A DNA stretch of 38,404 nt from the NCBI GenBank assembly GCA_964558705.1, contig CAZLFC010000004.1, positions 1-38,404 of the forward strand, written 5' to 3'. Source of the DNA: an uncultured Dehalococcoidales bacterium. GTDB taxonomy: Bacteria > Chloroflexota > Dehalococcoidia > Dehalococcoidales > GCA-2688105. The first letter of the stretch is position 1, and every line of letters starts with the position of its first letter. The notes beneath the pieces are model-generated. The model had not been told where the DNA came from and searched no databases. It saw nothing but the letters and a program-made list of their open reading frames with translations. Below, in pieces: positions 12,019 to 33,759 of the stretch. The position numbers were made by a program, and so were the translations under genes.

Positions 12019-13971
12019 TCATCCGGGCATTCTTAAGGTTATGGTAGTACCCACTCCCGCTACTGATTGCACGACCATGGTGCCACCGACCAAGCGAGCC
12101 CTTTCCCGCATCCCTATTATACCCAGCCTACCGGATAGAACCAAATCGCTTGTGCGCGACGGCATATCAAACCCTTTGCCATTATCGTTTATGACTAGAG
12201 TCAGCGCGTCATCGCTGAAATCTATCGTCATTTCAACTAACAACGCCTCGGAGTGTCTTTTTACATTGCTCAGCGATTCCTGAGCGATACGGAAAACAGC
12301 CAGCTCTTTTTCCTGTGAAAGACGGCGTTGACCACCGGTAATACCGACCTCTGTCACTATGTTATCCCGCTCCTCAAGGTCGGCGGCAAGCCACTCCAAA
12401 GCTGGCACCAAGCCCAGGTCGTCCAGTATCGACGGTCTGAGGTCCTGGCTAAAGCGACGCACCCCTTCCAAAGCGGAGTCAGCCATACCATGTAGCTTCT
12501 CCAGTTGCTCTGTTACCGGCTTCGATATCTTCCTCTTACCTGATACAATGGTGTCAAGGCCACGGGACAGACCGGCTAAAATCTGGGCGGTGTCATCGTG
12601 AAGCTCCTGGGAGATGCGCAAGCGCTCGTCCTCCTGGGCTCTGGTTATCTGTGTCACATAATAATCCATATTATGTCGCAGCCGCCTTTCCTCAGACACA
12701 TCCCGGACGATAACCTGTAGTCCAATTATTTGAGCACCCCTTAACAAAGGACTGACTTTAAGCTCAATAAATGCTTCCGTTCCATCCTTTCTAACCAAAC
12801 GAAGCTCCTCGGTCTCTCCAACCGTTACTCTCTCCAGTCCCTCTGAAAACAATCGTTTAACCATCTCCAGGCTTATTCCAGAGAAAAGCTCATAGATAGT
12901 AGTAGTAGACGATAGCTCCTCTCTAGTATAGCCGGTAAGTCGTTCACAGGCTCTATTAACTGAGATGATTCTCCCGGCAGTAGAGCAGACAAGAATCGCC
13001 TCACCCGCATTCTCAAACAGCCCTCGATAACGCTCCTCAGAGAGTCGAAGCCGCTGCGTGATAACCCTTTCATTAAGATGAAGTCGCGCATGCCCGATAG
13101 TAATCCCGATCTGGTTGCCCAGAGCAGTAAGCATCTCCAGCTTCCCCCTAGGGTCATGCCGGTTATCCCCTGCTATACCTAATGACCCCTGAGCACCTGC
13201 CCTGGTGCGCAATGGTACCACTAGTAAGGATCCTATATTTTCCCTCCCCACCATCCTTAAACCAACCTCCCGTAAGCCCTCTGTCATTACAATTGGCTTC
13301 CCGGTCTGAACCACACGACCGTCAGGATTCTCTCCCAACTTGACTCGCCGGGCATCGATGACAAACTGTGAGGATAGACCGTGATGAGCGCTAAGGACAA
13401 GGTTATCAGCTTCCTCGTCCCTGAGATATATCCACCCTACCTCAGCCCCGGTAGCTTCCAGGACTTTATCCAAGGCGTTATTTACAATCTGATTCAAATT
13501 TAAACTTTGATAAACCATAGTGGCAATAGCATGAAGTGAAGTCAGCTGCTGCTGCTGGTTCTTAATAGTTTGCAGTGAATCAATAAGCTCCTGCTGGGTA
13601 TCATCCAGTCGATAAGCAACCTGCCTTTCTTTATCAATCAACCAGCTTACCAGTAACCCGATGAACAGGAAAGCAGTAGTCTCCGCTATTGCCTCCGGCC
13701 TCTGAAAAGAAACTATCAAAGCCCGAGGGAAAAGAGCCAGGCTGATAAAAATAGCAGTGATAACTCCCCCGCGAAACCGGAAAATGAAAGCAGCATAAGC
13801 TACCGGAATGATAGACAGGATACGATGTGTTGAATAGCGAGCAAACACAATCGGTGACTGAGTCGCCATGTCCCGAAGCATGGGAATCTGGTCAGCGTAA
13901 TAGACGATGGCGCCACAGGTCATGATGGCTAAAATAATCCAGAGGTGACGATTCCTAAGCACTTGTCCCAC
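12019..13971 (-). CDS. Sensor histidine kinase: membrane domain, GAF, PAS, HisKA_3 and HATPase
   Basis: The N-terminus has 4 hydrophobic helices. GAF-like and PAS-like regions follow. The H-box is ELHDDTAQ (HisKA_3), and the C-terminal ATPase has (NDNGKGF, GLIGMRERA). Confidence 0.85.
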   Translation of the reverse strand: MGQVLRNRHLWIILAIMTCGAIVYYADQIPMLRDMATQSPIVFARYSTHRILSIIPVAYAAFIFRFRGGVITAIFISLALFPRALIVSFQRPEAIAETTAFLFIGLLVSWLIDKERQVAYRLDDTQQELIDSLQTIKNQQQQLTSLHAIATMVYQSLNLNQIVNNALDKVLEATGAEVGWIYLRDEEADNLVLSAHHGLSSQFVIDARRVKLGENPDGRVVQTGKPIVMTEGLREVGLRMVGRENIGSLLVVPLRTRAGAQGSLGIAGDNRHDPRGKLEMLTALGNQIGITIGHARLHLNERVITQRLRLSEERYRGLFENAGEAILVCSTAGRIISVNRACERLTGYTREELSSTTTIYELFSGISLEMVKRLFSEGLERVTVGETEELRLVRKDGTEAFIELKVSPLLRGAQIIGLQVIVRDVSEERRLRHNMDYYVTQITRAQEDERLRISQELHDDTAQILAGLSRGLDTIVSGKRKISKPVTEQLEKLHGMADSALEGVRRFSQDLRPSILDDLGLVPALEWLAADLEERDNIVTEVGITGGQRRLSQEKELAVFRIAQESLSNVKRHSEALLVEMTIDFSDDALTLVINDNGKGFDMPSRTSDLVLSGRLGIIGMRERARLVGGTMVVQSVAGVGTTITLRMPG

Positions 13972-13995
13972 CAGAGGCCTCCTCTCAGCTACATC

Positions 13996-14661
13996 CTAGG
14001 CAATATCATCCAACGTAAGCCAGCCCCTTCTTAGCGCCTCCAATATGGCTTCAGTTCTCGAGCCCACATCTATTTTGCGGAAAATATTAGCCAGGTGAGC
14101 CTGCACGGTGCGCCTGCTCAGGAATAGTTTGTCAGCGATATCCTGGTTACTCATACCCCTCCCCGCCAATTTGAGTATCTCCATCTCCCGCTCGCTGAGG
14201 TCCTGAGCTTGCACTGACTCGCCTGACTCCTGCCCAGCACCAGCGAAACGATTGAAAACCTTGCGGGCGATGACCGGATGGAGTACCGACTCGCCGGCAT
14301 ATACGGCATGAATGGCATTGACCAACTCCTTGCCGCTAACATTCTTCAGCAGGTAACCGGCCGCCCCTGCCTCTAAGAGAGCCCAGATATACTGGTCGTT
14401 GTCATAGGCAGTAAGGATTAAAACGGCTGTAGCCGGGTAGTGTGCTTTAATCTGCCTTGTAGCCTCAATACCATTGACCTTGGGCATAGCGATATCTATT
14501 AAAGCAACGTGAGGGTGAAGCCTGGTTACCAGCTCAACAGCTTCTTCCCCGTCACTAGCTTCCCCAACAACCTCTATGTCCCGCTCCCGTTTGATGAGAT
14601 TGCAGGTACCTTCACGGAACAGGACATGATCATCAGCGAGAATAACCTTAATCTTGTTCAT
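13996..14661 (-). CDS. NarL/LuxR-family response regulator
   Basis: REC domain (ILADDH...IDIAMP...KP-like) plus a C-terminal LuxR HTH (LSEREMEILKLAGRGMSNQDIADKLFLSRRTVQAH). Confidence 0.9.
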   Translation of the reverse strand: MNKIKVILADDHVLFREGTCNLIKRERDIEVVGEASDGEEAVELVTRLHPHVALIDIAMPKVNGIEATRQIKAHYPATAVLILTAYDNDQYIWALLEAGAAGYLLKNVSGKELVNAIHAVYAGESVLHPVIARKVFNRFAGAGQESGESVQAQDLSEREMEILKLAGRGMSNQDIADKLFLSRRTVQAHLANIFRKIDVGSRTEAILEALRRGWLTLDDIA

Positions 14662-20310: not shown

Positions 20311-21432
20311 ATGTTAGACAGAGTACCCTCATTGAAGATGAACCAGACCCAGTCCATGCAAATGCGGCAGGAGCAAAGACAAATCCTCCGCATGGAACAA
20401 GCCAACCTGCTGGAAATGCCCGAGGACGACTTTCACAAGCTTATCAGCGAGATAGAGCGTGAGCCCCTTTTTCAGAAGTTATACGGTAAGGAAAAACTAA
20501 TCCGCTACCAGAGACTGCCCAGAACCGATATGTCCTCCAGTTTCTACGCAATCAAAGAAGAGGTGGTAGCCGATAAAGGTTCGCTGGATGTTGAATCCCT
20601 TCTGCAGAATAAGGAGCACATTGTCCGGCTAATACAGCAGCTGGGCATGGAGACATTCAATAAGTATTTTTTGTTCCCGGAATCAGGGATGACTCCTGAA
20701 GAAATCGCTAGAGAATGCGACCTGGACATACCGGAGGTCCAGAAGATAAATAGCCTTATTGATGATTTCTCGGTCAGGAGTGAATTCTATCATCCGTCGA
20801 ATATTACCTCAGACAGCATCCGCTACTCCAAAATCGCCTCGGTAGATAAAGATGACAAGGGATTTATTATCGGCTATTTTTCAGCGCCTCTCGCCCGGGG
20901 TCGTTATGCCATTGATTATGAAAAATTTGAAGAGTTAAAGACGGCTGGTAAACTCGCTGACACTGAAATCAAGGAAGCCAGGCAGCTATTCAAAAAACTG
21001 GAACTGATTAATAGCCGCAAGGACACCATAACTCAAATCCTGCAAAATATCATTGACAAGCAGGCACTATACCTAGAGTCCGGCAACTCTAAGTCACTCT
21101 TACCTCTCAGCCAAAAGGAACTGGCTAAAAATATCGAGGTCGCTCCCAGTTCAATAAGTCGTGCTATTAGAGGCAAAAGTATCGAAACTCCCTGGGGTAA
21201 AGAAGTCCCTCTGAAAAACTTCTTCCCTAGGCCCAAGCGATTTAGAATGGAACTGCTCAGGCAACTGCTGGAAACCGACCAAGAGCTTTCCTCAGACGAG
21301 GCAATCCGCAACAAACTCCAGGAAAAATTTGGCGTAGCAATCTCACGTCGTTCGGTAGCCAACCTGAGAAAAGAGCTTAAATTCCCGGCGGTTCATAGAA
21401 GCCACCGTACCGCTGGAGGTAAATTAAAATGA
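20311..21432 (+). CDS. rpoN: Short, divergent sigma-54 (RpoN)-like factor
   Basis: Gln/Leu-rich region-I-like N-terminus (MNQTQSMQMRQEQRQILRMEQANLLEM). C-terminal HTH (QKELAKNIEVAPSSISRAIRGKSIETPWGKEVPLKNFF) and RpoN-box-like ISRRSVANLRKELKFP. The start is ATG 20311 or 20338. The stop overlaps the next ATG (ATGA). Confidence 0.7.
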   Translation: MLDRVPSLKMNQTQSMQMRQEQRQILRMEQANLLEMPEDDFHKLISEIEREPLFQKLYGKEKLIRYQRLPRTDMSSSFYAIKEEVVADKGSLDVESLLQNKEHIVRLIQQLGMETFNKYFLFPESGMTPEEIARECDLDIPEVQKINSLIDDFSVRSEFYHPSNITSDSIRYSKIASVDKDDKGFIIGYFSAPLARGRYAIDYEKFEELKTAGKLADTEIKEARQLFKKLELINSRKDTITQILQNIIDKQALYLESGNSKSLLPLSQKELAKNIEVAPSSISRAIRGKSIETPWGKEVPLKNFFPRPKRFRMELLRQLLETDQELSSDEAIRNKLQEKFGVAISRRSVANLRKELKFPAVHRSHRTAGGKLK

Positions 21433-23384
21433 GCATTGTCTACACCGAGAGAGAAAAATGTACCGGGTGCCTTGCCTGTGTTCGTAACTGCCCAGCCAAG
21501 GCAATCAGAATAAGAGAGGGCAAGGCTGAGGTAATAAAGGAGCGCTGTATTGACTGCGGCAACTGTGTTCAGATATGCATGGCTAAAGCGAAACACCTAG
21601 AGAGCGACATTGGATTGGTCTGGCAGCTATTGGGACAGCAGCAGCCGATAATCGCGATGCTATCCGCCCCCTTCCCCGCCGCTTTCCCTGAAATTCGACC
21701 GGGGCAGCTGGTAGCCGCTTTGAAAAAACTGGGTTTTAGCGAGATTATGGAGGATTCCTTCGGGGCTGAACTGATCTGCGGTGAATATGCCCGTCTTTTT
21801 AAGGAAAAAGCTGATAAAAATATTATCTCATCTACCTGCCCGGCGGTAGTGTCATACATTGAGAGATTTCACCCCCAGCTACTCAATAATCTAGCACCCA
21901 TTGTCTCACCTATGATAGCCATGGGTAGAGTGATTAAGCATCGTTATAATCCACAGGCTAAGGTAGTCTTCATTAGCCCTTGCGTAGCCAAGATAGCCGA
22001 GGCTAAAGATGAGAAGGTTGCCGGCATAGTGGATGCAGTACTGACCTTTGCCGAAATTAAAGAAATGTTAGCGGCTAAAGAGATTGCCCTTGCATCTCAG
22101 GACGAAGAGCAACTCACGGGTCCCAAACCAAACCTGGGGCGTCTGGTCGCCATATCGGGTGGCTTACTCAAGGCAGCCAATCTCTCCGACGATATTCTAG
22201 CCAATGAAATTATAAATGCCTGCGGTCATGAATACACACCTCATATCCTTCGCGAGTTTTCCGAAGGCAACATCACTGCCAAACTCATCACCATGTGTTT
22301 TTGTGAAGGTTGTATTGATGGTCCGGTTATTGATAACAACCTGAGCGTCTTTAAACGAAGAGAGATAATCAGCAATTACACCTTGAGCCAGGCAGACCCT
22401 GTTCAAACCGAGAAGGACGTTCAGGTATATGCTGACATTGACCTCAGCCGTAAATTTACCAATAGAAGTGTCGACCTACCTACTCCCAGCGAAGAAGATA
22501 TTCAAAGGATTTTAGAGGAGATTGGCAAGGTAGACCCCAGCTTCCATATGAACTGCGGCGCCTGCGGCTACGGCGGCTGCCGAGAACTGGCTATTGCCGT
22601 CTGCCAGGGTCTGGCTGAGGTTAATATGTGCTGGCCATATGTACTAAATAAGTTAAGAGCCACCCAAGAAGAACTAATCCAGGCTGAGAAGCTGACCTCG
22701 CTGGGTCAACTGGCCGCCTCCATCGCCCACGAGGTCAATAACCCCCTGGCCGGCGTCCTTATCTATACCCAGTTGATGGCTAAAAAAATAAACGACGATA
22801 AGCTCGCCAAAGAGGTCGCCCTCGACTACCTGTCCAAGATGGACTCCGAACTTACCCGCAGCACCAGACTAATCCGTAACCTCCTCGACTTCGCCCGGCA
22901 GTCTACGCCTACCCTCAGAGAAGTGAATGTCAACGAGGTCATCACCCGAGCTATAGAACTGGCCGCCCACTCGGCTGAACTGGGTAACGTCCAGATGATA
23001 AAGGAGCTCGACCCTGCCCTGCCCAGGCTTATGGCCGACTTCGACCAGCTCCAGCAGGTCTGCACCAACCTCATACTGAACGCCATCCAGGCAATGCCGG
23101 AAGGAGGTATATTGACCCTCCGCACCTCAACCCCACCCGATAATGACAGCCAGCTCAAGATTGAGGTACAGGATACCGGCCTCGGCATCTCCCCGGAGAA
23201 CATGCGCCGGCTGTTCACTCCCTTCTTTACTACCAAGAAGAAAGGCAAGGGCGTAGGCCTCGGTCTGGCAGTGGCCTATGGAATTGTCCAGCGCCACAAA
23301 GGTAGAATAGAAGTTCAGAGCAGGGAAGGAGAGGGTACCACCTTCATCATCTATTTGCCGCTGCGTTATGAAGAAAAAAGATAA
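21429..23384 (+). CDS. Sensor histidine kinase with 2x[4Fe-4S] ferredoxin, an [FeFe]-hydrogenase-like H-domain, a Cx2Cx4Cx16C FeS motif, then HisKA and HATPase
   Basis: Ferredoxin motifs are CTGCLACVRNCP and CIDCGNCVQIC. The Fe_hyd_lg_C-like core is (SAPFPAAF...LGFSEIMEDSFGAEL...SSTCPAVVSYIERFHPQLL...ISPCVAKIAEA...VDAVLTFAEI...MCFCEGCIDGP). NCGACGYGGCRELAIAVCQGLAEVNMC lies at 22554..22631. The H-box is AASIAHEVNNPL, and the ATPase has G-boxes. Confidence 0.8.
   Translation: MSIVYTEREKCTGCLACVRNCPAKAIRIREGKAEVIKERCIDCGNCVQICMAKAKHLESDIGLVWQLLGQQQPIIAMLSAPFPAAFPEIRPGQLVAALKKLGFSEIMEDSFGAELICGEYARLFKEKADKNIISSTCPAVVSYIERFHPQLLNNLAPIVSPMIAMGRVIKHRYNPQAKVVFISPCVAKIAEAKDEKVAGIVDAVLTFAEIKEMLAAKEIALASQDEEQLTGPKPNLGRLVAISGGLLKAANLSDDILANEIINACGHEYTPHILREFSEGNITAKLITMCFCEGCIDGPVIDNNLSVFKRREIISNYTLSQADPVQTEKDVQVYADIDLSRKFTNRSVDLPTPSEEDIQRILEEIGKVDPSFHMNCGACGYGGCRELAIAVCQGLAEVNMCWPYVLNKLRATQEELIQAEKLTSLGQLAASIAHEVNNPLAGVLIYTQLMAKKINDDKLAKEVALDYLSKMDSELTRSTRLIRNLLDFARQSTPTLREVNVNEVITRAIELAAHSAELGNVQMIKELDPALPRLMADFDQLQQVCTNLILNAIQAMPEGGILTLRTSTPPDNDSQLKIEVQDTGLGISPENMRRLFTPFFTTKKKGKGVGLGLAVAYGIVQRHKGRIEVQSREGEGTTFIIYLPLRYEEKR
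22674..23311. repeat. Copy A of a 638-bp perfect direct repeat (DHp plus most of the CA domain of the hydrogenase-like HK)
   Basis: Line-by-line comparison shows 22674..23311 is identical to 23960..24597 (offset 1286 bp). Similarity continues with mismatches to about 23370/24656. Confidence 0.9.
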
Positions 23385-23416
23385 GACGACAATCAGCTAA
23401 TTAAGCTAAGGTGTTA

Positions 23417-24679
23417 ATGGAACAGTCTATAACAATTAAACCAACCCTAAAAAACACCCTGCAACGCTGGAAAGAAATTGTGGTAGCCAAAGCTAACGAA
23501 TGGGCACAGCGAAGCGACACCAGAGGCATACGAAGCCCTCATTTCTGGATAATCACGGTTTTAATAGCCTTCGGCGCGCTGAATTACTATCTGGACCAGA
23601 CTCCCCTGATTAACCTGCCACTGTTTAACCACAGCTTTTTCACCAGTGTCCACGACGTACATCGGACATTATTCTTCATTCCCATAATCTACGCTGCTCT
23701 GGTATTCAGGGTACGGGGAAGCCTGATTGCTTCACTCGCCTTCCTCTGCGTGGTGCTACCACGCGCTTTGCTATTTTCCCCTTACCCCGACCCGTTACTT
23801 AGACCTATTCTATTTGTCATCTTTGCCGCCATTATCAGTACACTTATGGCGTCACACCTTAATCAAGTCGAAAAGGAAAGAAGCGATCGTGTCAAGCTGA
23901 GCGAAGCTTACCAGAAACTTAGCGAATATCACCAGCGCCTGAAAGAAAGCCAGGAACAGCTAATCCAGGCTGAGAAGCTGACCTCGCTGGGTCAACTGGC
24001 CGCCTCCATCGCCCACGAGGTCAATAACCCCCTGGCCGGCGTCCTTATCTATACCCAGTTGATGGCTAAAAAAATAAACGACGATAAGCTCGCCAAAGAG
24101 GTCGCCCTCGACTACCTGTCCAAGATGGACTCCGAACTTACCCGCAGCACCAGACTAATCCGTAACCTCCTCGACTTCGCCCGGCAGTCTACGCCTACCC
24201 TCAGAGAAGTGAATGTCAACGAGGTCATCACCCGAGCTATAGAACTGGCCGCCCACTCGGCTGAACTGGGTAACGTCCAGATGATAAAGGAGCTCGACCC
24301 TGCCCTGCCCAGGCTTATGGCCGACTTCGACCAGCTCCAGCAGGTCTGCACCAACCTCATACTGAACGCCATCCAGGCAATGCCGGAAGGAGGTATATTG
24401 ACCCTCCGCACCTCAACCCCACCCGATAATGACAGCCAGCTCAAGATTGAGGTACAGGATACCGGCCTCGGCATCTCCCCGGAGAACATGCGCCGGCTGT
24501 TCACTCCCTTCTTTACTACCAAGAAGAAAGGCAAGGGCGTAGGCCTCGGTCTGGCAGTGGCCTATGGAATTGTCCAGCGCCACAAAGGTAGAATAGAGGT
24601 ACAAAGCAGGGAAGGAGAGGGTACCACCTTCATTATCTATTTGCCGCTGCGTTATGAAAAACATGAAGAAAAAGATTAA
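23417..24679 (+). CDS. Membrane sensor histidine kinase (DUF4118-like 4-TM sensor, HisKA, HATPase)
   Basis: ATG 23417 (taaggtg RBS); the track start is GTG 23411. The hydrophobic N-terminus is homologous to the N-terminus of the 12019..13971 kinase. The transmitter is identical to that of the preceding kinase. Confidence 0.8.
   Translation: MEQSITIKPTLKNTLQRWKEIVVAKANEWAQRSDTRGIRSPHFWIITVLIAFGALNYYLDQTPLINLPLFNHSFFTSVHDVHRTLFFIPIIYAALVFRVRGSLIASLAFLCVVLPRALLFSPYPDPLLRPILFVIFAAIISTLMASHLNQVEKERSDRVKLSEAYQKLSEYHQRLKESQEQLIQAEKLTSLGQLAASIAHEVNNPLAGVLIYTQLMAKKINDDKLAKEVALDYLSKMDSELTRSTRLIRNLLDFARQSTPTLREVNVNEVITRAIELAAHSAELGNVQMIKELDPALPRLMADFDQLQQVCTNLILNAIQAMPEGGILTLRTSTPPDNDSQLKIEVQDTGLGISPENMRRLFTPFFTTKKKGKGVGLGLAVAYGIVQRHKGRIEVQSREGEGTTFIIYLPLRYEKHEEKD
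23960..24597. repeat. Copy B of the 638-bp perfect direct repeat
   Basis: See copy A. The antisense track ORFs 22826..23248 and 24112..24534 translate identically, which is consistent. Confidence 0.9.
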
Positions 24680-26006
24680 AATTCTTGTCGTTGATGATGA
24701 AGCCATCATCCGCGAGTCACTCCGTGACTGGCTAAGCGACACCGGATACGAAGTCCTTGTCGCCGAGAACGGCCTCCAGGGTCTGGGAATTATTGAGAAG
24801 GAGAGGCCGGGTATTGCCATTGTTGATCTGGTAATGCCTGGAATGGACGGGATTGAATTACTGAAGAGAGCCAAGGAAATTTCTCCTAACACCGACATAA
24901 TCATCATCACTGCCTACGCCAGTATCCCCACAGCTATTGCCGCCATAAGGTCCGGCGCCTATGACTACATTGAGAAGCCCTTCTGCCCGGAAAAGGTAGA
25001 GCTATTAATTGAGAAACTGATGGAGCATCAACAACTCATCGAGGAGAATATTTCCCTGCACCAGAAACTGGAGGAGCGTTACCGGTTCGAAAATATCATT
25101 GCCAAGAGTCCCAGGATGCAGCAGATAATCGAGGTGATTAAAGTCGTCGCCAAGAGTAATGCCACGGTGTTGATTACCGGCGAAAGCGGCACCGGGAAGG
25201 AACTGGTCGCACGAGCCGTCCACTCCCAGAGCTACCGCAAGGATAAGACATTTGTTGCCGTTAGTTGTGCTGCCCTGCCCGAAACCCTCCTCGAAAGCGA
25301 GCTGTTCGGGCATGAGAGAGGCTCTTTTACCGGTGCTCACGTCCAACGGAAAGGAAAATTTGAAGCTGCCAACCGGGGCAGTCTCTTCCTGGATGAGGTT
25401 GGCGAGATGAGTGCCAATATTCAGGTTCACCTGCTCAGGGTACTGGAAGAAAAAGAGTTCACCAGGGTTGGCGGGAATGAGCTAATCAAGGTCGATGTCA
25501 GAGTCATCTCAGCGACCAATAAAGATATGAAACAGGCGATAGCCAACGGGCAATTCCGTGAAGACCTTTACTACCGACTTAATGTGGTTACTATCGAATT
25601 GCCTCCCTTGAGAGAGCGAAAAGAAGACATTCCTCTCTTAGCCGAGCATTTCCTGAAAAAGTTCGCCGTGGAAAATCAAAAAGAGATTACCGGCTTTTCT
25701 CCTAAGGCTAATGATTTTCTGCTGAACTATGATTGGCCGGGTAACGTCCGGGAACTGGAAAATGCTATTGAAAGGGCAGTTATCCTGGCCAAAGATAATT
25801 ATATTGAGGTTGCCGACCTGCCCCAGGAAAGCCTGACAAAGACTCACTCGTCTGTACCCGGTGAAAGCCTTGAAAAGATTGAGAAAAATCACATCCAGAA
25901 CACACTCAAAGAAACCGACGGCAACTTAAGTAAAGCCGCCAAAATCCTGGGGATTTCCCGGGTAACTCTTTACAATAAAATTAAATTATATGATTTGAGC
26001 AAATAG
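24654..26006 (+). CDS. NtrC-family sigma-54-dependent response regulator (REC, AAA+ and Fis-type HTH)
   Basis: REC (ILVVDDE..VDLVMPGMDG..KPF), Walker A GESGTGKE and a GAFTGA-type loop (GSFTGA). Also ESELFGHE, R-finger and sensor II regions, and a C-terminal HTH (AAKILGISRVTLYNKI). It overlaps the HK stop. An alternative ATG lies at 24663. Confidence 0.9.
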   Translation: MKNMKKKIKILVVDDEAIIRESLRDWLSDTGYEVLVAENGLQGLGIIEKERPGIAIVDLVMPGMDGIELLKRAKEISPNTDIIIITAYASIPTAIAAIRSGAYDYIEKPFCPEKVELLIEKLMEHQQLIEENISLHQKLEERYRFENIIAKSPRMQQIIEVIKVVAKSNATVLITGESGTGKELVARAVHSQSYRKDKTFVAVSCAALPETLLESELFGHERGSFTGAHVQRKGKFEAANRGSLFLDEVGEMSANIQVHLLRVLEEKEFTRVGGNELIKVDVRVISATNKDMKQAIANGQFREDLYYRLNVVTIELPPLRERKEDIPLLAEHFLKKFAVENQKEITGFSPKANDFLLNYDWPGNVRELENAIERAVILAKDNYIEVADLPQESLTKTHSSVPGESLEKIEKNHIQNTLKETDGNLSKAAKILGISRVTLYNKIKLYDLSK

Positions 26007-26063: not shown

Positions 26064-26098
26064 AGGCTATCCTGGCAATTCAGGATAGCCTTCTCTTT
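26064..26098 (+). terminator. Hairpin plus T-tract after the ntrC-like gene, abutting the sigma-54 promoter
   Basis: aggctatcctg-gcaatt-caggatagcct is an 11-bp perfect stem followed by tctctttt. Its arms are conserved in the paralogous hairpin at 28403..28432. Confidence 0.55.
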
Positions 26099-26114
26099 TG
26101 GCAAGATAATTGCT
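26099..26114 (+). promoter_or_regulatory. Sigma-54 (-24/-12) promoter P1
   Basis: TGGCAAGATAATTGCT has GG at 26100-26101 and GC at 26112-26113 (exact GG-N10-GC, TGGCA-N6-TTGC). It lies 26 nt upstream of ATG 26139, with ggaggtg between them. Confidence 0.75.
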
Positions 26115-26138
26115 CTCAAACAGCGCGGAGGTGATAAG

Positions 26139-28334
26139 ATGAAACCTATATTGATAGTAGAAGATGAGGATATCATGAGAGAGTCCCTGCAGGACTGGCT
26201 GACTGACGTCGGCTATAAAGTGGAGACCGCCGAGGAGGGAGAGAAAGCCCTGGAAGCCATCGATGAGAAGGACTTCGGCATTGTTATCCTCGACCTGAAG
26301 TTACCGGGTAAAGACGGCCTCGAGGTGCTTAGAGAAGCTAAGGCGAAAAGACCCCAGCTTAAGGGTATCATTATTACCGCTTACCCTTCAGTCCAAACAG
26401 CTATAGACGCCATGAAGGAGGGAGCCGTAGATTACCTGCCCAAGCCCTTCGACCTCAATGAACTGGAAAAATTGGTCCGGGAGACCCTGGGGCCAATCCA
26501 GGTGGAGATAAAACCAAAGAAGGCTGCCGGAAAAGCCAAGGCTGAACCTGCCGAAATCGAGGAAGTTATCGATGAGGTAACCGGGAAGGTACACCTGCCT
26601 CCCTGTCAGATAGCCTGTCCCATCGGAGAGCCGATTCAGCGCACCAATGCGATGATTTCACACCTGCCCCTTGACACCGAGAAGGCTATCCCTCAGATAA
26701 CAAAAATAGGCGATATAATTTATGAGAAGAATCCTCTATTCACAATATGCAGCTATATCTGCGGGCTTTGTGAAAAAGAATGCAACTACAAAGACCACAC
26801 GGGAGCGATAAGAAGAAAGATGCTTAAACGGTTCCTCACCGATTACTACCTGCCCCATCTGGAAACCAAGCCCCCCTTCCCCCTCCCTACCAGGGAAAAA
26901 GTTGCCGTAATTGGCGGTGGCCCCGCGGGGTTAATGTCCGCCTATATGTTAAGTAAAGACGGCTACCGGGTGACTATCCTGGAAAAAAGTCTCGAATTAG
27001 GCGGAGCCCTGAGATACATTCCTCAATACCGCCTTCCGAAGGATATTGTCGATTCCACTTTAAACAACCTGGTAAGAATTGCCCATATTGATGTCAGATT
27101 CGGAGTAAGCATGGGCAGTGGCGAGAAAACCCTGGATGACCTCAGGAATGAAGGTTGCCAAGCCGTATTCATCGCCACCGGCACTCCAGCTCCCCGACCG
27201 CTCACCTTTGAAGGCAAACCGGTACCGGGAGCCGACCTGGAAGGAGTTGCGTTCGGGTTATATCTTCTCATCGACGTAAACCAGAGCAAGGTCTCCCATC
27301 AGCTATTACGCCGGCTTTTCGGTGATAAGAGAGTAATCGTGGTAGGCGGCGGCAATGTAGCCTTCGATGCCGCCAGAACCGCCCGGCGGCTTGGCGGAGA
27401 TGTTACTCTTGTCTGCCTCGAAAATGAGAATAAGTCCTCCAAGGATGGAATTCCTGCCGATGTTGAGGAGATAAAAGGTGCCCGTGAAGAAGGCATCAAA
27501 ATATGCTACAGCCGGGGTGTAGAAGAGATAATCGGCAAGGATGGCAAGTTCACCAAAATAAAATGTCCCCGCTGCACCTCAGTTTTCGACGAAAAAGGAT
27601 TCAATCCTAAATTTGACCGAAGTGATTTTATATACCTTGAGGGCGACGTGTTATTGACAACCATAGGACAGGGTCCGGAGCATTCGTTCTTCCAGCAGGA
27701 AGGCTTACTTAATGAGCGAGGCAGATCTGATACCGACCCGCTTACCCTTATGAGCAATCGCCAAGAAGGAGTCTTCATCGGTGGTGATGTGAGGCGACTG
27801 GGCTTTGCTGCCGAAGCGATGAGAGACGGCATAGTAGCCGCCGAGTCTATAGACCGTTACCTGAAGGGTGAGGAACTCAAGGAAGGCCGGGAAAAGCAGT
27901 TTGAAAGCGCGGCTATCCCCACGCTCATGGAGTACAAGCCTCAACCTGAAGCAGAATGGGTACTGCTGGAAGAGAGGCTTAACTTTGAACTGTTTGAAAA
28001 AGGCTTCACCCTGGAGGAAGCAATAGAAGAAGCGACAAGATGCCTGTATTGCGGCCCGTGCAAGAGCTGCAAAGCATGCGTCGTCCTCGAGCTGCAACCT
28101 GAGATACCCAAAATTGAAGTCAATCAGGATATATGCAGTGGCTGTGGCATCTGTGTAGGCTTATGCAGCTATGATGCCATCCAGCTAAGGGCAGATAACG
28201 GCAAGGCAGTAGCCACCATAGACGATATTAAATGCAAGCGATGCGGAGTATGCAGTGCCGCCTGCCCGTCTAACGCCATCGGCATTGGGCACGCCACTTC
28301 TGAGAACATCATAACTGAAATCCCCGACTGGTAA
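26139..28334 (+). CDS. Receiver domain fused to a GltD/NfnB/SfrB-like FeS-flavoprotein oxidoreductase with a C-terminal 2x[4Fe-4S] ferredoxin domain
   Basis: REC spans aa 1-120 (VEDE..LDLKLPGKDG..ITAY..KPF). An FeS N-domain follows (PPCQIACP, CSYICGLCEKEC). There are two Rossmann motifs (VAVIGGGPAGL, VIVVGGGNVAFDAA). The C-terminus has CLYCGPCKSCKAC, CSGCGICVGLC and CKRCGVCSAACP. Confidence 0.8.
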   Translation: MKPILIVEDEDIMRESLQDWLTDVGYKVETAEEGEKALEAIDEKDFGIVILDLKLPGKDGLEVLREAKAKRPQLKGIIITAYPSVQTAIDAMKEGAVDYLPKPFDLNELEKLVRETLGPIQVEIKPKKAAGKAKAEPAEIEEVIDEVTGKVHLPPCQIACPIGEPIQRTNAMISHLPLDTEKAIPQITKIGDIIYEKNPLFTICSYICGLCEKECNYKDHTGAIRRKMLKRFLTDYYLPHLETKPPFPLPTREKVAVIGGGPAGLMSAYMLSKDGYRVTILEKSLELGGALRYIPQYRLPKDIVDSTLNNLVRIAHIDVRFGVSMGSGEKTLDDLRNEGCQAVFIATGTPAPRPLTFEGKPVPGADLEGVAFGLYLLIDVNQSKVSHQLLRRLFGDKRVIVVGGGNVAFDAARTARRLGGDVTLVCLENENKSSKDGIPADVEEIKGAREEGIKICYSRGVEEIIGKDGKFTKIKCPRCTSVFDEKGFNPKFDRSDFIYLEGDVLLTTIGQGPEHSFFQQEGLLNERGRSDTDPLTLMSNRQEGVFIGGDVRRLGFAAEAMRDGIVAAESIDRYLKGEELKEGREKQFESAAIPTLMEYKPQPEAEWVLLEERLNFELFEKGFTLEEAIEEATRCLYCGPCKSCKACVVLELQPEIPKIEVNQDICSGCGICVGLCSYDAIQLRADNGKAVATIDDIKCKRCGVCSAACPSNAIGIGHATSENIITEIPDW
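26142..26580. repeat. Copy A of a 439-bp near-identical direct repeat (REC domain plus linker)
   Basis: 26142..26531 is identical to 28534..28923 (390 bp, offset 2392). There are 2 mismatches (26532 and 26557) before divergence at 26581. Confidence 0.9.
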
Positions 28335-28357
28335 AAAATGTAAAGAATATAAACAGC

Positions 28358-28381
28358 AACTGATTAAATAGTTTACAACCA
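28358..28381 (+). promoter_or_regulatory. Candidate upstream activator site, copy 2
   Basis: aactgattaaatagtttacaacca lies 82 nt upstream of the -24 GG of P2. Confidence 0.35.
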
Positions 28382-28402
28382 GGCTACTTTAAACCAAAGA
28401 CC

Positions 28403-28438
28403 AAGGCTATCCTGAATCGTCAGGATAGCCTTTTCTTA
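28403..28438 (+). terminator. Hairpin plus T-tract after the REC-GltD gene, abutting sigma-54 promoter P2
   Basis: aaggctatcctga-atcg-tcaggatagcctt is a 13-bp stem followed by ttctta. Confidence 0.55.
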
Positions 28439-28454
28439 TGGCAAGAAAATTGCC
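28439..28454 (+). promoter_or_regulatory. Sigma-54 (-24/-12) promoter P2
   Basis: TGGCAAGAAAATTGCC has GG at 28440-28441 and GC at 28452-28453. It lies 27 nt upstream of ATG 28480, the same geometry as P1. Confidence 0.75.
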
Positions 28455-28479
28455 TTTAAACAGTGTGGAGGTGATAAAA

Positions 28480-29571
28480 ATGGAAAAGCTAGCAGTCTTA
28501 AAGGAAGATAAAGTAAAAGGAGGTGAAAAAGTGAAACCTATATTGATAGTAGAAGATGAGGATATCATGAGAGAGTCCCTGCAGGACTGGCTGACTGACG
28601 TCGGCTATAAAGTGGAGACCGCCGAGGAGGGAGAGAAAGCCCTGGAAGCCATCGATGAGAAGGACTTCGGCATTGTTATCCTCGACCTGAAGTTACCGGG
28701 TAAAGACGGCCTCGAGGTGCTTAGAGAAGCTAAGGCGAAAAGACCCCAGCTTAAGGGTATCATTATTACCGCTTACCCTTCAGTCCAAACAGCTATAGAC
28801 GCCATGAAGGAGGGAGCCGTAGATTACCTGCCCAAGCCCTTCGACCTCAATGAACTGGAAAAATTGGTCCGGGAGACCCTGGGGCCAATCCAGGTGGAGA
28901 TAAAACCAAAGAAGGCTGCCGGAGAAGCCAAGGCTGAACCTGCCGAAACCGAGGAAGTTATCGATGAGGTAAAGGTTGAAGAGATTATAGCTATAGCTCC
29001 CGAGGAAGTCCCGGACCATCTGGCGCAGGGCAAGACCCAATGTGACGCCGGCCAATATCTGAAAGCTCTAAAGGAGTTTGAGGCTGTCCTCAACGCTGCC
29101 CCGGGTAGCATCGAAGCCCGAGTCTGGATACGAAAGGCAAAAGAAGCCCTAGCCAAGCCAGAGGCTGAAGCCGTAGCTGAAGGAGAGGAAGCCGCCGCAG
29201 AAGGCAAAATCAAGGAGTGCGTTTGGATGAAGATGGGTATGGTAGCCTACCGCATCTGCACCAACGACTATGACTGCACCACCTGCGATTTCGACCAGAT
29301 GATGCAGGAGAAGATGGCCAGTGGTGATGCCCCGGAACTTGAAGCTGCGCTGGAGAAATTCAAGGCGCTACCCGGTAACCAGAGGCTTTGCCGCTATGCC
29401 CTTAAGGGTGATGTATCACACCGAATTTGCAGCCGCCTGTTCCAGTGCAACGCCTGCGAATTTGGTCAAATGATGGAGGATGCTCTCCAAAGAAAGCTGG
29501 ATAAGCTGGAAGCACGCCGAGCTGCTCTGCTCAAAAAAGAGCAAAAACAAAAAGCTGAAACCGAAGCATAA
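28480..29571 (+). CDS. Response regulator: REC, TPR-like linker, twin C-x12-C-x5-C-x2-C modules and a coiled-coil tail
   Basis: The start is set at ATG 28480 (ggaggtg RBS, matching P1 geometry). An alternative GTG lies at 28531 (aaggaggtg RBS). The track ATG 28438 lies inside the -24 element. The REC is identical to that of the 26139 ORF. The C-terminus has CVWMKMGMVAYRICTNDYDCTTCDFDQMMQE and CRYALKGDVSHRICSRLFQCNACEFGQMMED. Confidence 0.75.
   Translation: MEKLAVLKEDKVKGGEKVKPILIVEDEDIMRESLQDWLTDVGYKVETAEEGEKALEAIDEKDFGIVILDLKLPGKDGLEVLREAKAKRPQLKGIIITAYPSVQTAIDAMKEGAVDYLPKPFDLNELEKLVRETLGPIQVEIKPKKAAGEAKAEPAETEEVIDEVKVEEIIAIAPEEVPDHLAQGKTQCDAGQYLKALKEFEAVLNAAPGSIEARVWIRKAKEALAKPEAEAVAEGEEAAAEGKIKECVWMKMGMVAYRICTNDYDCTTCDFDQMMQEKMASGDAPELEAALEKFKALPGNQRLCRYALKGDVSHRICSRLFQCNACEFGQMMEDALQRKLDKLEARRAALLKKEQKQKAETEA
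28534..28972. repeat. Copy B of the 439-bp REC repeat
   Basis: See copy A. Confidence 0.9.
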
Positions 29572-29704: not shown

Positions 29705-30202
29705 ATGGACACCCAAAAAAGGAGGATTCTGCTGGTAGAAGATGAAACCGTGATGCGCGAAGGCATGCGTGACTGGCTCATGGAGAATGGTTACGATGTC
29801 GAGAGCGCTGAGACCGGAGAAGAAGCCTTACAGAGAATCAGGAAGGAAGACTTTGGCATTATCGTCCTTGATTTAAAGTTACTGGGCATTGATGGACTGC
29901 AAGTATTCGAAAAAGCCAGAGAGCTTAAATCTGAAGCCAAAGGGATAATCATTACCGCCCATCCTTCGCCAGAAACGCAGGAAAAGGCACAAAAGCTGGG
30001 AGTCCTCGACTACCTGGTAAAACCTTTCAAGATTGAAAATCTGGAAAAGATAATCAGAGAGGTGCTGGGAGAACCAGAGAGAAAACTAACGGGCAAAGAA
30101 TATCTCTGGCTGGAACTTAATAACTCTTCTTATCGACTCTGCACCAAAAACTATAAATATGACTCATATGCTTTCACGCAGGGGACCTATAAGATAGATT
30201 AA
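29705..30202 (+). CDS. Stand-alone receiver protein with a short Cys-depleted remnant of the C-x12-C-x5-C-x2-C module
   Basis: aggagg RBS. The REC is paralogous to the two upstream RECs (MREGMRDWLMENGY, LDLKL, ITAH, KPF). The tail KEYLWLELNNSSYRLCTKNYKYDSYAFTQ aligns to KECVWMKMGMVAYRICTNDYDCTTCDFDQ, with 3 of 4 Cys replaced by Tyr. Confidence 0.75.
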   Translation: MDTQKRRILLVEDETVMREGMRDWLMENGYDVESAETGEEALQRIRKEDFGIIVLDLKLLGIDGLQVFEKARELKSEAKGIIITAHPSPETQEKAQKLGVLDYLVKPFKIENLEKIIREVLGEPERKLTGKEYLWLELNNSSYRLCTKNYKYDSYAFTQGTYKID

Positions 30203-33369: not shown

Positions 33370-33759
33370 TCACCTCTTTGGGTTGAGAACACGAACAACA
33401 GCTTCTCTCAGGCTGGTCACGCTCAGGGGTTTAATCAGGTAATCGACAGCACCCATCCCGAGAGCTCTGTCCCGCTGTGGCACTCCGGCTGAGGCAGTGA
33501 ATACAATTACGGGAATTGCTGATAGCTCCAGCTCACTTTTCATCGCCCGCAGGACGCTCCAACCATCACGCCCGGGTAACCGCAAATCCAGCAGCATCAG
33601 AGCAATATGATGTTCCCTGGCTAATCTCAAGCCAGTATCACCATCGCTGGCCTGAAGAACCCGGTAACCCTCCAGCTCAAGTACCCGGGAGACAAAAGTC
33701 AGGACTTCAGCCTCATCTTCTATAGTAAGGATCGTCTTTACGCCACACGACCTTGCCAT
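33370..33759 (-). CDS. Single-domain response regulator (CheY-like)
   Basis: ILTIEDE, LLDLRLPGRDG, VFTAS and KPL; 129 aa. Confidence 0.85.
   Translation of the reverse strand: MARSCGVKTILTIEDEAEVLTFVSRVLELEGYRVLQASDGDTGLRLAREHHIALMLLDLRLPGRDGWSVLRAMKSELELSAIPVIVFTASAGVPQRDRALGMGAVDYLIKPLSVTSLREAVVRVLNPKR

Follow-up and report, generated by a model that had tools for sequence, protein, structure and literature searches.

Twin receiver domains on unrelated outputs of a Dehalococcoidales two-component island: probable episodic homogenization by gene conversion

The window analysed here, a 38,404-nucleotide stretch of DNA from an uncultured Dehalococcoidales bacterium, encodes a sigma-54/NtrC-type two-component island in which two receiver (REC) domains, fused to unrelated output proteins, are almost identical at the DNA level. 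The explanation that we favour, with a probability of about 75%, is that these RECs are old paralogues on two outputs that have recently been overwritten by gene conversion, that such conversion recurs episodically, and that the same process acts on the neighbouring histidine kinases HK1 and HK2. The window is the whole of contig C4 of a metagenome-assembled genome (MAG; G000) of 0.70 Mb in 41 contigs, 67% complete.

In an ungapped comparison, the full REC repeat covered 454 bp with 5 mismatches, copy A lying at 26127-26580 and copy B at 28519-28972, both on the forward strand. Each copy runs from the ribosome-binding site (RBS) and start codon through the receiver domain and its acidic linker to the fusion junction of an open reading frame. 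The first of these frames, REC-GltD, continues into a GltD/NfnB-like iron-sulphur (Fe-S) flavoprotein, and the second, REC-X, into an uncharacterized Cys-rich "X" domain. The copies were identical over 392 bp (26140-26531 = 28532-28923), a run that contains the exact 390-bp match (26142..26531 = 28534..28923) reported in the initial annotation. The substitutions listed there at 26532 (A/G) and 26557 (T/C), and the divergence from 26581/28973, were all reproduced. Three further mismatches fell at the 5′ edge, across the RBS and start codon (26127-26139). At the other end similarity stopped sharply, identity dropping from 100% to ~25% at 26581. No other copy of the repeat was found in the 41 contigs of the genome. 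Both copies belong to the PF00072 family, with scores of 103.1 and 104.1 bits (cut-off 30.2). They retain D9/E10, D52 (ILDLKLPG), T80 (IIITAY) and K102 (PKPF), which are invariant in 25 REC-X orthologues and which we take to be the acidic pair, phospho-acceptor Asp, conserved Thr/Ser and Lys of the receiver fold. Judged by sequence comparison, a chance origin of the identity is excluded, because orthologous RECs of the sister species reach only 78-79% identity.

The same genes, including both REC-GltD and REC-X, are carried by a congeneric MAG (G001, locus L023). The initial annotation had proposed comparing synonymous divergence (dS) across the REC with that of flanking segments in orthologous loci, and the comparison separated the two clearly. 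Between G000 and G001, dS was 0.7-1.6 and nucleotide identity 77-81% for every orthologous part of the island, from the RpoN-like gene, the two sensors and NtrC to the GltD and X parts; for the RECs, dS was 1.3-1.5. Within genomes, the REC pair had a dS of 0 in G000 and 0.22 in G001, where nucleotide identity was 91.6%. REC-GltD forms a single orthogroup, with a GltD part 76-80% identical at the amino-acid level and a common junction motif, VEEVIDExTGK. Yet when 42 REC sequences were placed on a maximum-likelihood tree, the four REC-GltD RECs never clustered; each stood beside the REC-X from the same genome or lineage, with 100/100 support for the window pair. Monophyly of the REC-GltD RECs was rejected by the approximately unbiased (AU) test (p = 9e-59). 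Since the paralogues within a genome are closer than the orthologues, although both paralogues predate the split, and given the AU result, the REC pattern is, as read from these alignments, one of concerted evolution by gene conversion.

The linker gave an indication of direction. Among 28 REC-X orthologues, that of the window was the only one with a GltD-type linker, 'EEVIDEV', ahead of REC-X's own 'KVEEIIAIAPEE'. Because this linker is borne by the window REC-X alone, the last tract was probably copied from REC-GltD into REC-X, ending where homology ends. The modules would thus be old paralogues on different outputs of one island, and the recent overwriting of one by the other would have proceeded by RecA-type intrachromosomal conversion between direct repeats 2.4 kb apart, with a tract that opened at the start codon and stopped where the linker stops, and with REC-GltD as the probable donor. 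A recA gene was present in the MAG (G000:C19:2061-3023, 538.9 bits, over the cut-off). Conversion would recur episodically in other Dehalococcoidales lineages, and pairs that have drifted too far apart would escape it and diverge normally.

The regions upstream of the twin-REC genes appear to record an older event. By pattern search, promoter A (26064-26113, forward strand) comprised a terminator-like hairpin at 26064-26091 and a −24/−12 element, TGGCAAGATAATTGC, at 26099-26113. Promoter B (28403-28453, forward strand) comprised a hairpin at 28403-28432 and the element TGGCAAGAAAATTGC at 28439-28453, followed by a 57-nt leader. Each twin-REC gene is thus preceded by a hairpin and a canonical −24/−12 element, TGGCAAGA(T/A)AATTGC. 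The pattern TGGCA-N6-TTGC, found at 26099 and 28439, occurred four times in the window against 0.43 expected. The predicted sigma-54 element was kept upstream of orthologues and an NtrC-type activator is encoded in the locus, as would be expected of sigma-54-dependent promoters. An estimate by eye had put the two upstream regions at about 70-75% identity; that they are paralogous was borne out, while the figure rose to 82% (87/106) in a gapped alignment. The suggestion that the REC had been homogenized apart from its promoter agreed with the contrast between a REC dS of 0 and a promoter divergence of 18%. In the relatives L114 and L128 the second promoter lacked a hairpin. Because promoters A and B are 82% identical and the RECs 100%, and because of these hairpin-free promoters, the sequences point to conversion layers of different age, which suggests an older, longer event in the window lineage and a later one confined to the REC.

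The 57-nt leader was present in promoter B only, and the REC-X orthologues of relatives have it too. In promoter B the leader is flanked by two copies of the RBS-plus-start motif GGAGGTGA(T/A)AA(A/G)(A)(A/G)TG (28468-28533), whereas promoter A has a single copy and appears to have lost its leader by deletion between such short repeats. The start of REC-X is likely the GTG at 28531, because the two in-frame ATGs upstream of it (28438 and 28480) overlap with promoter and leader sequence and because orthologues begin MKPILIV.

The process proposed for the RECs would also homogenize the transmitter halves of the adjacent kinases. Sequence comparison placed the two copies of the transmitter repeat at 22664-23375 and 23950-24661 on the forward strand, with an exact core of 638 bp (22674-23311 = 23960-24597). 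The initial proposal that transmitter and receiver are both duplicated near-identically was therefore confirmed for both cores. Copies 1 and 2 differed by a dS of 0.024, against 1.5-1.6 from the G001 orthologues, and the pattern recurred in that sister species, whose own transmitter pair had a dS of 0.051 and 98-100% identity. The mechanism would be common to both repeats of the island. The kinase genes adjoin (1.3 kb apart), and where two exist they are nearly always homogenized: in the window, in G001, in L058, where the pair was 100% identical over ~750 bp, and in L052 as a mosaic of 79-97% identity. REC pairs, unlike kinase pairs, were spread much more widely, from 66% to 100%.

This spread was followed in a survey of 33 Dehalococcoidales genome loci and 80 metagenome loci, which yielded 15 within-genome pairs of this REC type. 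Nucleotide identity was 100% in the window pair and, over ~427 bp, in L057, whose outputs are NuoE-like and 2Fe-2S/NuoG-N-like. It was 92% in L023, 88% in L052 and L107, 85% in L110 and L113, 80-81% in L108 and L053, and 76-77% in L042, L048 and L054. The lowest values were those of L114 (75%), L128 (73%) and L050 (67%); the median between loci was 72%. The 15 pairs formed a continuum in dS from 0 to saturation. The L052 pair was a clear mosaic: a tract of 203 nt matched perfectly, and the sequence on either side of it was 76-81% identical (permutation P < 5e-5). The same tract test was not significant for L023 and L053 (P = 0.41 and 0.46), pairs that look uniformly diverged since an older conversion. 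L114, L128 and L119 (76%) have exactly the gene order of the window, yet their RECs were ordinarily diverged, with dS > 1; L050, which also has the NtrC - REC-GltD - REC-X layout, likewise had dS > 1. Because diverged, intermediate, mosaic and 100% identical pairs form a continuum, homogenization is, on the surveyed pairs, recurrent but episodic, with no conserved design.

HK1 and HK2, with a hydrogenase-like and a membrane sensor, respectively, would both phosphorylate NtrC, which would then switch on the sigma-54 promoters in front of the two twin-REC genes. These kinases would also phosphorylate REC-GltD, REC-X and probably the third island receiver, REC3, modulating a redox enzyme and a Cys-rich effector, and the twin-REC outputs would be equivalent substrates of both kinases. 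The α1 helix motif (D/E)DExIMRESLxDWL was found in REC-GltD, REC-X, the NtrC-type REC and REC3, and not in the unrelated regulator at 33370-33759. Because this motif is present in four island RECs and the kinase DHp-CA modules are identical, branched wiring with shared kinases is plausible. The motif was kept in all surveyed REC pairs, diverged ones included, and since it persists even in fully diverged pairs, shared wiring needs no DNA identity. The 2-sensor by 2-output arrangement put forward in the initial annotation therefore stands as a plausible scheme, though not as one that calls for identical DNA. We take the DNA identity to be largely a neutral by-product of proximity and high protein-level constraint, with deletion-prone direct repeats as its cost. 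Of the two-component proteins in the recovered genome, all six REC matches and two of the three transmitter matches lie on the window contig. Because this genome, as recovered, has almost no other two-component proteins, pressure for insulation would be low and conversion within one pathway would be harmless.

As a side effect, identical direct repeats would permit pop-out deletions in which a sensor or an output is lost, and two contigs of a sister strain have the form of such products. L102 (JGI 3300008516) and L103 (ENA ERZ25073496) share five single-nucleotide polymorphisms (SNPs) relative to the window, at 24370, 24396, 24408, 24454 and 26048. In L103 the HK1 sensor was joined to a transmitter with the HK2 tail, leading directly into NtrC, and the HK2 sensor was absent. 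In L102 promoter A and the REC were joined to the X domain, and the GltD part and promoter B were absent. In both, edge sites changed from copy-1 to copy-2 type across an identical core, as expected of recombination products. Exact-protein look-ups found each deletion form on one contig only, and these may be real compact haplotypes or the result of loop-skipping by the assembler. The commonest layout in relatives was one sensor with one output. It is conceivable, though we consider it improbable, that the identical modules constitute a plug-and-play scaffold, in which homologous recombination within one species switches between a full form with two sensors and two outputs (the window, L101 and L104) and a compact form with one of each (L103 and L102), and in which selection favours identity because any added sensor or redox output would automatically share one phospho-interface. 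Should both forms prove to be real haplotypes, the island would offer a tractable case of recombination-driven signalling rewiring within a species.

Somewhat less probable still is active selection for identity itself, for an un-insulated network of two sensors and N outputs, with conversion as no more than its tool and divergent variants purged. Homogenization of both transmitter and receiver in the same island, in two sister species, would fit this, as would the recurrence of the pattern in L057 and L058 and the α1 motif common to all island RECs. However, the relatives with the same layout (L114, L128 and L119, at 73-76% identity) show that identity is not required; their ordinary divergence, an outcome that the initial annotation had itself named as refuting, does not support its claim that selection keeps the copies identical by design. 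The orthologous 2Fe-2S-type RECs also form a clade of their own, and the α1 motif and 66-79% amino-acid identity persist without DNA identity. Between species the kinase DHp helix and REC α1 hardly differ, so that there is no moving interface to co-homogenize. A 'co-evolving interface ratchet', with conversion spreading compensatory changes, was set aside on the same near-constancy of the DHp helix and REC α1. To present the arrangement as the opposite of the insulation rule was an overstatement, as branched networks such as Roc are known and there are few two-component proteins here to insulate from.

Several points weigh against conversion as the explanation. We infer it from the sequence pattern. 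Copy number and exact identity within the repeat rest on short-read metagenome assemblies, in which De Bruijn assemblers can collapse 50/50 bubbles, hiding sparse differences between repeats, and this may slightly inflate identity. The visible mismatches all lie within ~50 nt of the repeat ends. The lone strain SNP inside the repeat (T in the window, C in L101) falls at corresponding positions of copies A and B, 26204 and 28596, as expected from collapse and equally from co-conversion. The deletion forms, on one contig each, could also be products of loop-skipping. Taken further, these points would make the repeat a collapsed or chimeric graph path whose copies are truly more different, or the tandem layout wrong; every assembly consists of short-read metagenome contigs, and some break within the repeats or skip the loop (the start of L101, the end of L103, and L102). 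We regard such an assembly effect as unlikely. False duplication is disfavoured because the segments that occur once (the two promoters, the GltD part and the X part) permit only one linear path, because L101 and L104 independently repeat that path, and because assemblies of other species by other groups show the same phenomenon. L101 (ENA ERZ25073474, 7012 bp), of the same species with 15 SNPs relative to the window, has the order NtrC - REC-GltD - REC-X - REC3, and both its repeat and the two mismatches are those of the window. L104 (JGI Ga0114922, 3140 bp, same species, 14 SNPs) supports the adjacency of GltD, promoter B, REC and X. Collapse would hide only sparse differences. Since one 'double SNP' only separates two assemblies, hidden differences are probably few, about 2 or fewer, and true identity is probably about 99% or more. 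Moreover, the G001 pair (~91.7%) stays uncollapsed and still lies far above the orthologue level of 78%, and the mosaic of L052 is impossible from collapse.

Least probable, and very much so, is a recent de novo duplication of promoter and REC from REC-X, fused onto a stand-alone GltD-like gene in the window lineage: many metagenome contigs do have stand-alone GltD-like orthologues, and the occurrence of the REC module on several outputs in relatives shows that fusions occur, but the REC-GltD fusion itself, with the same junction motif and post-NtrC position, was found in L053/L109, L110, L113, L114, L119, L128, L157, L023 and L050, promoters A and B have already diverged by 18% with a REC dS of 0, and the linker points to transfer from GltD to X, the opposite direction.

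In relatives, the REC-plus-linker module is attached to at least six different outputs. Loci with other REC fusions are L057:7152-8006, L057:10001-10987, L042:13546, L048:13441, L054:13548, L052:11056 and L059:10001, and the alternative outputs include a NuoE-like 2Fe-2S protein, a 2Fe-2S/4Fe-4S NuoG-N-terminal-like protein, a small Cys-rich domain, and a NuoC-like plus GltD-like protein. Together, the receiver-fused electron-transfer subunits constitute one family in relatives. About 60 metagenome contigs (L121-L183) encode receiver-free orthologues of the GltD-like protein (query residues ~133-728, 69-76% amino-acid identity), and the REC would therefore be an optional add-on to this enzyme. 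In G001, REC-GltD lies upstream of rpoN. The idea that it had been relocated beside REC-X specifically in the window genome was dropped because the order NtrC - REC-GltD - REC-X, with sigma-54 promoters before both, was seen in several other lineages.

Concerted evolution of bacterial paralogues by gene conversion has classic examples in tufA/tufB of Salmonella and E. coli and in the rRNA operons. The subject, intrachromosomal conversion included, was reportedly reviewed by Santoyo and Romero in 2005. Common to these cases and the window RECs are paralogues within a genome far closer than orthologues between species, sharp tract ends, a balance of conversion and divergence with 'escape', and RecA-dependent conversion, which for the window is a proposal with a recA gene present. 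The window differs in that homology is confined to a single domain of multi-domain genes, a signalling module on unrelated sensors and outputs, and in that homogenization affects both partners of the kinase-receiver interface.

Branched wiring also has a precedent. The available text on the Roc network of Pseudomonas aeruginosa (PMC12051241) describes a many-to-many two-component system whose wiring was experimentally shown. As there, the window would have two or more kinases acting on several regulators with DNA-binding and enzymatic outputs and no internal insulation, although its wiring is predicted from sequence. The same text does not report Roc components as DNA-identical modules held alike by conversion, and the window outputs, unlike those of Roc, are Fe-S redox proteins and a Cys-rich domain without known family. 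Shuffling of RECs between effector domains by 'within-gene recombination' has been described (bioRxiv 10.1101/2020.09.30.321588; Pao and Saier 1995, cited therein). There, as in Dehalococcoidales, recombination moves REC modules among effectors; however, the swaps of that study are ancient and were followed by diversifying selection towards insulation, whereas in the window recent, repeated events keep paralogues alike. In Ehrlichia ruminantium, the response-regulator gene ntrX underwent gene conversion from a nearby duplicated segment (PMC9937504). That was, according to the accessible part of the report, a single event from an inverted, pseudogene-like duplicate in which virulence was attenuated, and not recurrent homogenization of a module between functional genes. 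Thus, gene conversion of bacterial paralogues, branched networks and REC shuffling were known already. Literature searches returned no description of this Dehalococcoidales cassette, nor of parallel transmitter and receiver homogenization in one two-component system. Domain-level concerted evolution would thereby have a clean natural example in which both two-component partners are affected, and the fifteen related pairs capture all its stages, from recent conversion to complete escape. The island also cautions against taking DNA identity of signalling modules as a sign of selection for cross-talk. The presence of one receiver module on many Fe-S redox proteins of marine Dehalococcoidales gives a hint that electron-transfer enzymes are controlled by phosphorylation, downstream of a hydrogenase-like sensor.

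Pfam and NCBIfam searches gave the order of the island as NuoE/NuoF-like, FdhA-like molybdoenzyme, RpoN-like, HK1, HK2, NtrC/AtoC-type, REC-GltD, REC-X and REC3; the genes from the RpoN-like factor onwards were located as follows, all on the forward strand. The short RpoN-like sigma-54 factor (20311-21432, 373 amino acids) matched PF04552 (Sigma54_DBD) at 81.6 bits and TIGR02395 partially, under the cut-off. Its DNA-binding domain alone scored above the Pfam cut-off and its N-terminal 130 residues had no sigma-54 model match, and the gene, at the head of the cassette, was retained in nearly all related loci. HK1 (21429-23384) combines a [FeFe]-hydrogenase-like sensor, an Fe-S domain and a HisKA/HATPase_c transmitter (PF02906, PF04060, PF00512 and PF02518); an exact-protein look-up did not find the HK1 protein in database records. 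HK2 (23411-24679) has a membrane sensor, seen in its translation, and the same transmitter (PF00512 and PF02518). The NtrC/AtoC-type sigma-54 activator (24654-26006) has a REC-AAA+-HTH_8 architecture (PF00072, PF00158 and PF02954; NF008469 AtoC E = 1.4e-153, below cut-off).

REC-GltD (26139-28334) joins its receiver (PF00072, 103 bits) to a GltD/NfnB-like FAD/NAD(P)H Fe-S oxidoreductase with a C-terminal 2×[4Fe-4S] domain (PF07992, PF14691 and PF12838; NF009410 E = 5e-97). REC-X (28531-29571; PF00072, 104 bits) continues into TPR-like helices and two Cys-rich repeats, and its C-terminal X domain had no Pfam, NCBIfam or PDB relative except for weak TPR matches. An AlphaFold2 model of REC-X from a 25-sequence alignment (pLDDT 44, pTM 0.26) was too poor for use. 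REC3 (29705-30202), identified by profile search and alignment, is 53-55% identical to REC-A and REC-B at the amino-acid level and ends in what looks like a decayed tail with a single Cys motif. This tail is truncated, and Tyr residues stand where relatives (e.g. L025:2532-3179) have the CxxC of the Cys-rich motif; the gene, though small, holds 3 of the 15 strain SNPs of L101. A second two-component pair lies on the minus strand at 12019-14661 and consists of a 650-residue kinase and an adjoining regulator of 221 residues; the kinase has a membrane sensor similar to the one in HK2 (30% amino-acid identity). In the related loci L030 (1348-1452) and L052 (6888-7085), remnants of kinase transmitter tails lie between cassette genes, and we read these as scars of earlier rearrangements of the transmitter module.

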